Below the pieces are notes generated by a model. It made no database searches and had not been told where the DNA came from. It saw only the letters and a program-made list of their open reading frames with translations. A DNA stretch of 64,000 bases. Origin: an uncultured Bacilli bacterium (GTDB taxonomy: Bacteria; Bacillota_I; Bacilli_A; RF39; UBA660). Where the stretch lies: the NCBI GenBank assembly GCA_934102355.1, contig CAKOSO010000001.1, forward strand, positions 229,620 through 293,619, read 5' to 3'. Within the stretch, counting starts at the first letter, position 1; each line of letters opens with the position of its first letter. The translations under genes and the position numbers were made by a program. Of this stretch, positions 8,312 to 10,897 are shown in pieces.

Positions 8312-8337
8312 AAAAAAGCGTCTTATTAAACGCCTTT
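8312..8337 (-). terminator. terminator at the 3' end of the T4SS-like operon
   Basis: GCGTCTT...AAACGC hairpin abutting the stop codon at 8337, with an A6 run (T-run on minus). Confidence 0.45.
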
Positions 8338-10124
8338 TATAAACCTCCACCAGTTCCAAATGAATCTAATTCTTCTTGAGTTAAAATAACACTCATTCTC
8401 ATTCTTCTAGATCCACATACAAATAATGCTTCACCTTGAGAATATCTTTTAATACTTTCTTTTTCATTGTCATTTAAATCAATAAGTAAAGATAAATCTT
8501 CAACTGCTTGTTTCTTTAATCCCATAACTAAATAATAAGCAGCATTATCAAATATAGCTTTACCTTGAGTAATAACTTCATTTGGAGTAAAGTCGCTTGG
8601 TTGTTGAGTAATAATTATATTACCTGTATTATACTTACGACTTCTTCTTTGAATATTAGCTAAGAAATCAGCACCTAAAACATTACCACCAGACAATAAA
8701 ACATGCGCTTCATCAACCATCATTACTGTATTAATTGATGAATCAAGACACAAACTCCATGCATACTTTAATATATTGAAGAATAATGCATTTCTAACAT
8801 TAACATCCGCACTCATAACCTCACGAATATTAAATACTATAAAATTACTTTTTGGAGCTATAGTAGTATGTCCATTAAAATAATATCTTAATTCATTAGT
8901 TAAAGGTCTAATCTTAAGTTCAAGTCTTTCCATTACATCTTTTTCATGAGTAGCTTCAGTCATTGAAATAAGTTTACCTTTAATTGTTGTATATAAATCA
9001 TCAAAAGTTGGATATTGTTCACTAGTAAGACTTGAAAAATCTGTATTAAAATCAATACCAAATCTTCTATATGTCTCCTGTAACATTTCAATTAGCAAAT
9101 TTAATACATCTTCAGTTATTGAAGGATCATAATATCTCATAAATCCTTTAATAAACTGATATGTTTGAGTAAGTACAGTATAACCAAGTCCTTGCTTTAC
9201 TTCATCCTCATCTGCATCAACTAATACTTCCAAAGGATTAATAAGACCAAATTGTCCACCTTTTCCTAAGTCAATATTATCTCCGCCAAATAAATCAACC
9301 ATCTCTCTAAGTTCAGCTTCTGGATCAATACAAACAACTTTATAACCGTTTCTTAAAGAACTTCTAACCATTAGCTTTGCAGCAGTAGATTTACCACTAC
9401 CAGAAGTACCAAGAATAATCATATTAGCATTATTTCTATTATGTTCTTTTCTTATTTGATATAAGAATTGATTAAATAATACAACACCACCAGAGAAATC
9501 TGTACCAAATAATGTGGAAGGACCTGGGTCTTTTATACTATCAAATATAAACGGATACATACCAGCCATAGTAGGACTTGGTAAGATAGTACCTATTCTT
9601 TCTTCAATATCTTGTTTTGGAAAGAAAGGTAAAATACTTTTTAAAACTTTCTCTTGTTCAAAACGAAGAGGAATAGCACGAAGTCCCATAGCATCAAGAT
9701 AATTTTTTATTTGAACCTTTTTAGTTTCTAAATCTTCTTTAGTATCAGCAGTAACAACTAAATGCATTTGAAAATCATAGATTTTTGATTGAGCAACTGC
9801 AAGTTGTTGAATAAAAGCTTCTAAAGTATCATAATCCTGTCTAATACGTTCTTGTGTAGTTTGATCCTTTTCATCTTGATAAGCAATTCTTAACTTAGCA
9901 AGTTCTTTATTAAGCATTTTTTGTAACGTAGAAAAAGGAACAGGTATATGCTTTATAACAATTTTAACACCAGGCATATTAGTAATATTTGATAAAAAGC
10001 CTACTCCAATCTTTCTTGGATAAGAAACAACTGTAAGAATAGTCATATATTTATCACTTATAAATATATCACCTACATTAAATTGTAAACCTTTTGGAGC
10101 GACCTCACTTTTAAATAAACTCAT
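8337..10124 (-). CDS. VirB4/TrsE/TcpF-like T4SS ATPase (CagE_TrbE_VirB + ATPase domains)
   Basis: 595 aa. Walker A GTSGSGKST, Walker B VMMVDEAH, the VirB4-type N-proximal VVSYPRKIGVGFL motif and a C-terminal QQPSD region. Confidence 0.75.
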   Translation of the reverse strand: MSLFKSEVAPKGLQFNVGDIFISDKYMTILTVVSYPRKIGVGFLSNITNMPGVKIVIKHIPVPFSTLQKMLNKELAKLRIAYQDEKDQTTQERIRQDYDTLEAFIQQLAVAQSKIYDFQMHLVVTADTKEDLETKKVQIKNYLDAMGLRAIPLRFEQEKVLKSILPFFPKQDIEERIGTILPSPTMAGMYPFIFDSIKDPGPSTLFGTDFSGGVVLFNQFLYQIRKEHNRNNANMIILGTSGSGKSTAAKLMVRSSLRNGYKVVCIDPEAELREMVDLFGGDNIDLGKGGQFGLINPLEVLVDADEDEVKQGLGYTVLTQTYQFIKGFMRYYDPSITEDVLNLLIEMLQETYRRFGIDFNTDFSSLTSEQYPTFDDLYTTIKGKLISMTEATHEKDVMERLELKIRPLTNELRYYFNGHTTIAPKSNFIVFNIREVMSADVNVRNALFFNILKYAWSLCLDSSINTVMMVDEAHVLLSGGNVLGADFLANIQRRSRKYNTGNIIITQQPSDFTPNEVITQGKAIFDNAAYYLVMGLKKQAVEDLSLLIDLNDNEKESIKRYSQGEALFVCGSRRMRMSVILTQEELDSFGTGGGL

Positions 10125-10897
10125 AGTGGCATTACACCTCCTGATTCATAAGTTTTTCCACCATTTAAGAAATTATCAACCAAAGTCCTTAAATCATTAT
10201 TAGTAGTAGGAGTAGCATTAAGTCCTGCTGCAGCTAAAGAATTAATCATATTACGAAGCTTCTTTTGTAATAAATCCATTTTCTTTTCTTTAAACAAAAT
10301 GTAATACTCAGTATCAACAACATTATTGTTTTTAAAATATTCTGCCTTATCAAGATCCTGAGCTATAACTTTTCTCATTCTTTGATCATAAGTTTTAGAA
10401 TATAAAAGTTTCATTTCAGCTTCATATACTCCAATATCAACAGGTCTATCAGCAACCATTAACCAAAATTCAAAATCAATAGTATTATAAAAATTCATAA
10501 GACCAATTAAAGTATTATCCATTTGAGACTGATCAAGAATAAATATATTTTTAGGTGCAATTTTAACACCAGTTACCATATATCCTTCTCTATTATAAAT
10601 AATACCATTAGTAATAGTTTTAATATCTAACCAATTCTCAGTATACTTTTTGTCCTCTACCTCTTTTTTAGGCATCTTTTTCATAACTCTTTTATCAATA
10701 CCACTTACATTAGCTCCACCCCTAACATTAGTACCTCTATTGTTAGAATTTGGAGCACTTGTTCCTTGAACACCCATTTGATTCATAGTTTGATTAACCT
10801 GATTACCACTAGTTGCACCAATTTGATTAGCATCAATAACACCATTATTATTCGTCATCTGATTGTTCATACCTATAACACCAACCTCTCCATACAT
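10121..10897 (-). CDS. VirB4 N-terminal segment encoded as a separate ORF (Asn/Gln/Gly-rich lead + VirB4 N-domain)
   Basis: The stop overlaps the next ATG as ATGA at 10121-10124. The region IAPKNIFILDQSQMDNTLIGLMNFYNTIDFEFWLMV resembles the extreme N-terminus of Gram-positive VirB4s (Tn916 Orf16/ConE class). The true start is probably an internal Met, because the first 50 nt overlap the VirB3-like gene. Confidence 0.55.
   Translation of the reverse strand: MYGEVGVIGMNNQMTNNNGVIDANQIGATSGNQVNQTMNQMGVQGTSAPNSNNRGTNVRGGANVSGIDKRVMKKMPKKEVEDKKYTENWLDIKTITNGIIYNREGYMVTGVKIAPKNIFILDQSQMDNTLIGLMNFYNTIDFEFWLMVADRPVDIGVYEAEMKLLYSKTYDQRMRKVIAQDLDKAEYFKNNNVVDTEYYILFKEKKMDLLQKKLRNMINSLAAAGLNATPTTNNDLRTLVDNFLNGGKTYESGGVMPL

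Follow-up and report, generated by a model that had tools for sequence, protein, structure and literature searches.

Is the virB4 gene of an uncultured Bacilli bacterium broken in two, or is it naturally encoded by two genes? The question is raised by a 64,000-nt stretch of contig CAKOSO010000001.1 (assembly GCA_934102355.1), called the window here, where VirB4, the ATPase of a type IV secretion system (T4SS), is spread over two consecutive open reading frames (ORFs) on the minus strand. In the ORF listing, ORF-A (10897..10121, 258 aa) and ORF-B (10124..8337, 595 aa) both start with ATG. Their junction reads ...GGAGGTGTAATGCCACT-ATGA-GTTTA..., and the ATG of ORF-B (10124-10122) shares bases with the TGA of ORF-A (10123-10121). 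The preliminary description of this DNA had reported a pair of ORFs with a 4-nt ATGA overlap at 10121-10124, which the ORF list and the sequence reproduced exactly. A lone 4-nt overlap is commonplace in bacterial operons and proves nothing by itself; conservation raises this one above chance, because a split with a tight junction was present in 79/79 usable related loci.

The favored answer, with a probability of about 0.88, is a naturally split and translationally coupled VirB4: ORF-A provides the first module of the N-terminal domain, ORF-B provides the second module and the hexameric P-loop ATPase, and a third gene upstream (ORF-C) encodes a VirB3-like protein. This answer is carried by homology, shown separately for each piece, by a split that is conserved across relatives, by a conserved ribosome-binding element, and by purifying selection. 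The split is an old, conserved architecture already known as TrsD/TraD plus TrsE/TraE, and not a mutation or a sequencing error.

ORF-A and ORF-B as parts of VirB4

ORF-B contained both Walker motifs (Table 1) and matched the Pfam families P-loop_TraG, AAA_10, and DUF87. In sequence searches, ORF-B aa 201-594 matched the C-terminal domain of Thermoanaerobacter VirB4 (4AG5; E 2.3e-50), and in Foldseek the ORF-B model matched the same domain with a TM of 0.80 normalised to the target. The model also aligned with TrwK over ~600 columns. For ORF-B, AlphaFold gave a weak model (pLDDT 60.6, with the N-terminal 230 residues mostly <50), used only for the C-terminal domain and for overall TrwK coverage. 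The preliminary description had given ORF-B a CagE/TrbE domain together with the Walker ATPase. The ATPase was evident from the Walker motifs and the 4AG5 match, and the CagE_TrbE_VirB domain (PF03135) was present as a marginal, partial match (22.0 bits, cut-off 21; positions 57-181 of the 204-position profile). A partial match would be expected if the first part of the domain lay outside ORF-B. Among curated VirB4 models, ORF-B remained below the trusted cut-offs of NF045975 (342/590 bits), CD1110 (159/325), and TIGR00929 (74/643), and the first ~190-300 positions of these models were missing from it.

The VirB4-like part of ORF-A was confined to aa ~72-246, the first ~70 aa being N/Q/G-rich and of low complexity. 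These residues matched positions 90-277 of the NCBIfam model VirB4_plasma (NF045975; E 1.6e-11, 43 bits). The AlphaFold model of ORF-A (aa 60-258) was an alpha/beta module (pLDDT 74, pTM 0.62), and its top 14 PDB matches in Foldseek were all TrwK/VirB4 of R388 (E 6.6e-4 to 1.7e-2, TM ~0.40, ~145 columns). The ORF-A sequence had no match among PDB chains at E <= 10, and the ORF-A family profile matched only DIS3L1 chains, which were rejected as spurious. Because these searches found nothing real, the mapping of ORF-A onto TrwK comes from Foldseek and carries no residue ranges.

The relationship of ORF-A to TrsD was seen by profile comparison: pGO1 TrsD aligned with the ORF-A family profile over 153 columns (hhalign probability 93.8%, E 1.8e-7). 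The TrsD/TraD family model NF041427 was matched by 11/31 members of the ORF-A family alignment (A1), and by distant ORF-A relatives of ~220 aa. PF26593 (TraC-like) was not matched by ORF-A itself in the Pfam scan; it was precomputed on most ORF-A relatives at 55-95% identity and was the label of the orthologue in the related locus L082. ORF-A also has the layout of this family, in which a protein of ~180-260 aa is encoded directly upstream of a short VirB4 of ~590-670 aa and downstream of a VirB3-like gene.

In total, three ORFs tiled the 894 positions of NF045975, a model of the VirB4 of mycoplasma integrative and conjugative elements (ICEs): ORF-C covered positions 3-93, ORF-A 90-277, and ORF-B 298-891 (ORF-B aa 7-587, E 4.9e-102). 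Because the matched ranges are successive, the three consecutive genes tile one fused VirB3-VirB4 protein. The preliminary description had placed ORF-A at the extreme N-terminus of VirB4. The N-terminal assignment held in the NF045975 match, the fused proteins described below, the Foldseek matches to TrwK, and the TrsD profile match; the word extreme did not, as in the fused mycoplasma chain the extreme end is formed by a VirB3-like membrane hairpin, which corresponds to ORF-C.

Naturally fused proteins gave the same arrangement. An exhaustive search of 1.8 billion representatives with the domain of ORF-A returned single chains with ORF-A-like extreme N-termini, namely P0322 (800 aa), P0328 (839 aa), and P0381 (892 aa), all of which are VirB4 by NCBIfam. 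ORF-A matched their N-termini in BLASTP (E 1e-14 to 1e-18), and so did not fall into an unrelated family, the outcome that the preliminary description had named as decisive against its assignment. In pairwise BLAST, P0328 aa 29-185 corresponded to ORF-A aa 84-245 and P0328 aa 233-835 to ORF-B aa 5-586; P0322 and P0381 were tiled similarly. The split point coincided with a variable linker of ~30-60 residues in the fused proteins. ORF-A and the first 150 residues of ORF-B have a similar order of secondary structure elements, which suggests that the N-terminal domain consists of two like modules and that the break may lie between them and not inside one.

It had been proposed that both ORFs be aligned with Tn916 Orf16, ICEBs1 ConE, and pCW3 TcpF and checked for tiling of one protein. 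Tiling was found on NF045975 and on the fused VirB4 proteins of 800-892 aa. Those comparators are of the wrong class, MPF_FA (TcpF model NF052333: 15.9 bits against 1100, E 0.0022). The relatives are of the MPF_FATA type (TrsE, CD1110, and mycoplasma ICE VirB4).

The start of ORF-A is uncertain and lies at 10897 or at an ATG at 10870. From the first ATG the overlap with ORF-C is 50 nt (10848-10897); because 10897 thus lies 50 nt inside ORF-C, 10870 may be the more plausible start. The ATG at 10870 is preceded at 8 nt by GGTG, as is found ahead of ORF-B, and would give a protein of 249 aa and an ORF-C overlap of 23 nt.

The junction in related loci

A scan of one genome per species identified at least 569 stretches with an ORF-B relative in uncultured gut Bacilli. 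The public labels of these genomes included "Tenericutes," Mycoplasma sp. CAG:611, and Acholeplasma sp. CAG:878, and we take the lineage to be RF39-like. Junctions and neighborhoods were counted in the best 80 of the at least 569 loci, of which 79, the window included, were usable for the junction; each came from a different species genome. ORF-A and ORF-B were separate genes in every usable locus, which settles the comparison of orthologues that the preliminary description had called for. The junctions comprised a 4-nt ATGA overlap (36 loci), a 1-nt TAATG overlap (29 loci), an 8-nt overlap (11 loci), and a 0-nt or 1-nt gap (three loci). Relative to ORF-A, ORF-B was in the -1 frame, the +1 frame, or the same frame; because all three occur, no single frameshift or recoding event explains the split.

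Among the matches listed, all 120 ORF-A relatives were 184-271 aa long and all 120 ORF-B relatives were 592-599 aa long, to 72% identity. The exact 258-aa ORF-A protein was found on three contigs, and in its 90% cluster 14 of the 15 members listed, from independent assemblies, were 258 aa long. A sequencing error at the junction, which the preliminary description had considered, is excluded because identical copies of ORF-A and of ORF-B were present in several independent assemblies. Median pairwise dN/dS was 0.30 for ORF-A and 0.17 for ORF-B, rough values given the high dS; both ORFs are under purifying selection.

Genetic code 4, in which TGA encodes Trp, was ruled out by the 1146-aa ORF upstream and by many other long ORFs without TGA. 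The TGA of ORF-A is a real stop because these TGA-free ORFs indicate the standard bacterial code. Hypothetical readthrough of this TGA would stop 18 codons later in the ORF-A frame.

Just ahead of the ORF-B start, the C-terminus of ORF-A encodes a conserved Gly-Thr/Gly-Val. The codons used were GGG-ACG-GTG in 53 of the 76 loci in which the motif was found, with GTG nearly universal, although GGG, ACG, and GTG each made up only ~5-6% of their own codon family in the same genes. Across loci, a GGGACGGTG or GGAGGTG element ended 5-10 nt (mode 8) before the ORF-B start. This element fits the extended Shine-Dalgarno consensus AGGAGGTGAT, which is complementary to the 3' end of 16S rRNA. Because otherwise rare codons are conserved just before the ORF-B start, selection at synonymous sites keeps a ribosome-binding site inside ORF-A. 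Together with the stop/start overlap, the element argues for coupled and roughly equimolar synthesis of ORF-A and ORF-B. A promoter and terminator scan of 7300-16800 performed no better than shuffled sequence (promoters 58 vs 61.9; terminators 3 vs 1.8), and no operon boundaries are claimed.

Translational coupling and a natural split, as the preliminary description had proposed, are thus favored by the conserved split, the ribosome-binding element, and purifying selection. ORF-C, ORF-A, and ORF-B overlap or abut, and would be produced in near-equal amounts. Translation of ORF-B would be initiated at a Shine-Dalgarno-like element that lies within the last part of ORF-A, and ribosomes that finish ORF-A could also restart at the overlapping ATG, giving near-equimolar subunits. 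ORF-A would then bind ORF-B non-covalently and rebuild a VirB4-like N-terminal domain. The rebuilt assembly may dock on VirB3/VirB6 at the membrane, beneath the VirB6 channel, and from there would power assembly of and substrate transfer by an MPF_FATA-type T4SS.

Several points weigh against this reading. BLASTP of ORF-A against pGO1 TrsD was insignificant, though in register, so that profile comparison was required, and ORF-A did not match NF041427 directly at E <= 0.1; the putative link between ORF-A and TrsD therefore passes through profiles and intermediate sequences. The best Foldseek match of ORF-A to TrwK was modest (TM ~0.40, E 6.6e-4). The position of the break between modules was taken from secondary structure only, with a poor ORF-B model over the N-terminal 230 residues. 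In the window, the 10-nt spacing from GGAGGTG to the ORF-B start is rather long, and dS was near saturation in many pairs. Binding of ORF-A to ORF-B is a predicted interaction.

The alternative that survives best, itself improbable, is that ORF-A descends from a VirB4 N-terminus but is now an independent accessory protein (e.g., an assembly chaperone, regulator, or substrate adaptor) that does not complete the ORF-B fold. TrsD has no assigned function, and TrsD homologues of Gracilibacteria lie away from virB4 (PMC12102498). ORF-A also evolves faster than ORF-B, with 46-70% identity across related loci against 70-89% for ORF-B and the higher dN/dS. Two distant ORF-A relatives, P0375 (343 aa) and P0377 (431 aa), combine an ORF-A/TrsD-like domain with an unrelated, non-ATPase C-terminal extension, a hint that this module may be recruited without VirB4. 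A role in completing ORF-B is favored by the strict adjacency or overlap with virB4 in every locus examined, by the same order and split point in the plasmids pGO1 and pBMB68, and by the fused proteins, which hold both parts collinear with a short variable linker between them.

It is very unlikely that the junction is a site of programmed ribosomal frameshifting or stop-codon bypass that yields a full-length fused VirB4. The two frames do share a few nucleotides at the overlap, and elsewhere fused homologues are functional, but no slippery heptamer was found before the stop (GTA ATG CCA CTA TGA). Relatives would need -1 frameshifting, +1 frameshifting, or in-frame readthrough according to locus, and no single signal serves all of these; what is conserved instead is the Shine-Dalgarno-like element and the ATG.

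A recent -1 frameshift, the alternative left by the preliminary description, or an error of sequencing or assembly that broke a single virB4 and left a pseudogene, can be dismissed: fused single-chain relatives exist and one related metagenome-assembled genome (MAG) has a broken ORF-B, but the split recurs with four junction geometries and in all three relative frames, both exact proteins come from several independent assemblies, both ORFs are intact and under purifying selection, and a conserved ribosome-binding element precedes ORF-B. In that low-coverage MAG (locus L010, CAYWQZ010000033.1, 2195-3985), the longest ORF of the ORF-B homologue is 321 aa and corresponds to query aa 275-595; the break reflects either a true pseudogene or a fault of assembly.

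For annotation, the naturally split VirB4 means that a frameshifted pseudogene is the wrong label for the locus, and that the small upstream gene, usually called hypothetical, supplies the N-terminal module that VirB4 lacks. In T4SS biology, the locus would be a clean natural case of a VirB4 N-terminal domain delivered in trans, with the break at a variable linker and tight coupling kept by selection on a ribosome-binding site of rare codons. The case is useful for engineering and for interpreting TraD/TrsD, which recent reviews have left without a role.

Secretion module and genomic setting

Table 1. Positions of the split gene, its motifs and junction, and the other secretion-related genes of the window.
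Feature	Coordinates	Strand	Evidence and remarks
ORF-B, 595 aa, VirB4 core: second N-terminal module (CagE_TrbE_VirB) and C-terminal P-loop ATPase	8337..10124	-	Profile and structure matches
Walker B VMMVDE, ORF-B aa 467-472	8709..8726	-	Translation; D471 and E472 invariant in 32 relatives
Walker A GTSGSGKST, ORF-B aa 239-247	9384..9410	-	Translation; invariant in 32 relatives
ATGA stop/start overlap of ORF-A and ORF-B	10121..10124	-	Sequence; same 4-nt overlap in 36/79 relatives, window included
Shine-Dalgarno-like GGAGGTG within the ORF-A 3' end, spaced 10 nt from the ORF-B start	10135..10141	-	Sequence
ORF-A, 258 aa, TrsD/TraD-like ("TraC-like," PF26593), first alpha/beta module of the VirB4 N-terminal domain	10121..10897	-	Profile, BLAST, and Foldseek matches
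ORF-C, 108 aa, VirB3/PrgI/TcpE-like two-helix membrane protein	10848..11174	-	TcpE weak; NF045975 positions 3-93, E 0.024, 12 bits
VirB6/TrbL-like polytopic membrane protein, 1146 aa	11190..14630	-	TrbL_4 at aa 695-819; upstream of ORF-C in 74/80 loci
T4SS pilin-like protein, 115 aa (PF18895)	14641..14988	-	Pfam; in 62/80 loci
133-aa membrane ORF, head of module	15079..15480	-	Same strand in 65/80 loci; no significant Pfam family
M23 peptidase, 294 aa	21627..22511	-	Pfam; ~11 kb from virB4
VirD4/TraG-type coupling protein, 708 aa	27196..29322	-	T4SS-DNA_transf, TrwB_AAD_bind, TraG-D_C; ~17 kb from virB4

The split virB4 closes a conserved module that comprises the 133-aa membrane ORF, the PF18895 pilin, VirB6/TrbL_4, ORF-C, ORF-A, and ORF-B, the members of which were found in 62-80 of the 80 loci. 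The order TrbL_4, PrgI/TcpE-like, ORF-A, ORF-B was shared by the window and 74-78 of the 80 loci. ORF-C was present in 78/80 loci, and its orthologue in L082 carried a weak precomputed PF26592 (PrgI_like) label. The VirB6-like protein of the window is unusually large, with a long Cys-rich N-terminal half without a family match; relatives have instead one to three TrbL_4 paralogues of 553-795 aa.

In the related loci L082-L085, the gene for the coupling protein was directly downstream of virB4 or after one gene, and a pGO1 TrsK query matched 67/85 sequences by tblastn. In L082, virB4 was followed directly by an M23 peptidase gene and then by the gene for the coupling protein; the M23 peptidase of the window possibly serves as the cell-wall hydrolase of the secretion system. 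Between the module and the M23 and coupling protein genes of the window were uvrC, lspA, mscL, SpoVA genes, and genes for a pseudouridine synthase, a sigma factor, and a phosphoketolase.

The rest of the window contained housekeeping and sporulation genes: uvrC, lspA, mscL, SpoVA, GerA, mutS, a gyrA/parC-type topoisomerase subunit, ComEC, and FtsW. The spore genes were SpoVAC/SpoVAD/SpoVAEB (25330-27181) and GerA, GerAC, and a spore permease (49364-53041); they sit in a genome of 26% G+C whose relatives are publicly labelled Tenericutes, Mycoplasma, or Acholeplasma. The window itself was ~26% G+C, with nearly all genes on the minus strand. GC skew was uniformly and strongly negative (-0.2 to -0.4) over 1-64000; because of this skew and the gene orientation, the whole window belongs to a single replichore, and the strand shown is taken as the lagging-strand complement.

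Downstream of virB4, five ORFs occupied 2760-8167: a 230-aa ORF, a metallophosphatase (299 aa), a K/E-rich ORF of 306 aa with a C-terminal membrane helix, a 352-aa ORF, and a Bro-N protein (284 aa). No counterparts of these five ORFs were found in the 80 related loci, and the segment looks like a variable or cargo segment. Two Bro-N proteins are encoded on the same strand 55 kb apart, at 2760-3614 (284 aa) and 57984-58811 (275 aa), and are possibly paralogues that came from a phage or mobile element. Also encoded were a CHAP-domain protein (332 aa, 48260-49258) and a MucBP adhesin-like protein (716 aa, 53045-55195). Elsewhere, the companions of Gram-positive T4SSs include CHAP hydrolases (TrsG of pGO1) and surface adhesins (a VWA/MucBP protein near virB4 in L083).

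Neither a relaxase nor an integrase was found among the 47 window ORFs scanned with Pfam (64 kb of genome) or within +-10 kb in L082-L085. Three relaxase queries matched 0/85 sequences by tblastn, against 67/85 for the coupling protein control, a search that would miss divergent relaxases. Tentatively, the split VirB4 could be part of a chromosomally fixed, lineage-wide, relaxase-less secretion module of the MPF_FATA type in reduced-genome gut Bacilli. The at least 569 stretches, the housekeeping flanks, and the relaxase-negative searches are compatible with and suggestive of such a module. The same evidence also fits a highly successful ICE family with a relaxase that is located beyond the examined stretches or is too divergent to detect. 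A relaxase-less module, if real, would be a Firmicute counterpart of the Patescibacteria T4SS and would have a role beyond self-transfer, such as cell-cell interaction, DNA uptake or release, or effector delivery. The lineage-wide chromosomal setting may then outweigh the split in importance, as such a T4SS module in an uncultured reduced-genome gut lineage was not described in the literature found. No paper joining RF39 and VirB4 was found, and papers returned for RF39 and "type IV secretion" were irrelevant.

Likeness to known secretion systems

TrsD plus TrsE of Staphylococcus aureus pGO1/pSK41 and TraD plus TraE of pIP501 belong to the pGO1 subclass of MPF_FATA. TrsD has remote homology to the N-terminus of VirB4, its gene usually lies beside virB4, and a TrsD-type gene just upstream of a short VirB4 is known from pGO1-type plasmids and from Patescibacteria (PMC12102498). 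The statement on TrsD and the VirB4 N-terminus is cited from this source because the term TrsD is absent from the main text of Guglielmini 2014. A 2025 nomenclature review places traC adjacent to traE and does not mention TraD of pIP501, the TraD named there being the F-plasmid coupling protein (PMC12857230). TraD of the pELF paper was rejected as a TrsD homologue, as it is VirD4.

The gene order of pGO1, namely TrsB (a CagC-family pilin), the small membrane protein TrsC, TrsD (227 aa), and TrsE (a 672-aa DUF87 VirB4), is the same as that of the window. ORF-B aligned with TrsE along almost its entire length (24% identity, E 2e-39), and the break position is equivalent. The trsD and trsE genes are separated by a 14-nt gap, whereas ORF-A and ORF-B overlap. 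pGO1 is a bona fide conjugative plasmid that carries relaxases and keeps its trs genes in one contiguous operon; the locus in the window is chromosomal, with a 1146-aa VirB6 and a coupling protein 17 kb away.

The best plasmid match to ORF-B was the VirB4 of the Bacillus thuringiensis conjugative plasmid pBMB68 (30.5% identity over aa 1-594). This plasmid and its relatives of ~68 kb encode TrbL, PrgI, a 227-aa "hypothetical" protein, and a 632-aa DUF87 VirB4, the same VirB6-VirB3-TrsD-like-VirB4 order as in the window, with junctions of a 1-nt overlap and a 3-nt gap. The 227-aa ORF aligned with the ORF-A family profile at 100% probability (hhalign, E 2.6e-42). ORF-A itself gave only three marginal tblastn matches against plasmids, the plasmid homologues having been found via ORF-B. 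The TrsD-like gene of pBMB68 (NZ_CP010581.1, 21282-21965; L086, 4266-4949) is annotated "hypothetical protein" in RefSeq; because of this label, the split VirB4 is unannotated in reference plasmids. Unlike the window, pBMB68 is a plasmid system with a MobP3 relaxase and a coupling protein immediately upstream.

Among curated models, the mycoplasma ICE VirB4 (Mbov_0397 family, NF045975; CDS17/TraE of ICEA) scored best for all three ORFs, with 342 bits for ORF-B, 43 for ORF-A, and 12 for ORF-C, each under the 590-bit equivalog cut-off. The mycoplasma protein is one chain of ~894 aa that includes the VirB3-like hairpin, whereas three genes are used in the window. TrwK/VirB4 of R388, found by the models of both ORF-A and ORF-B, is a single polypeptide with 7-15% identity; VirB4 of Thermoanaerobacter pseudethanolicus (4AG5/4AG6), whose C-terminal domain is matched by ORF-B, is likewise a single polypeptide. 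In R388, the VirB4 N-terminal domain contacts VirB3 at 1:1 (as summarised in PMC12857230).

The chromosomal T4SS of Patescibacteria shares with the window the set of VirB4, TrsD, PrgI/VirB3, VirB6, and a VirB2-like pilin of PF18895 (PMC12102498). In that group, virB4 and the coupling protein are often far apart, most systems have no relaxase, and the system is lineage-wide in reduced genomes (PMC12102498); it is reported as essential for an epibiotic lifestyle. Unlike in Patescibacteria, the coupling protein adjoins virB4 in most relatives of the window. The window and Patescibacteria have the same component set and dispersal in different phyla, a likeness of gene content.

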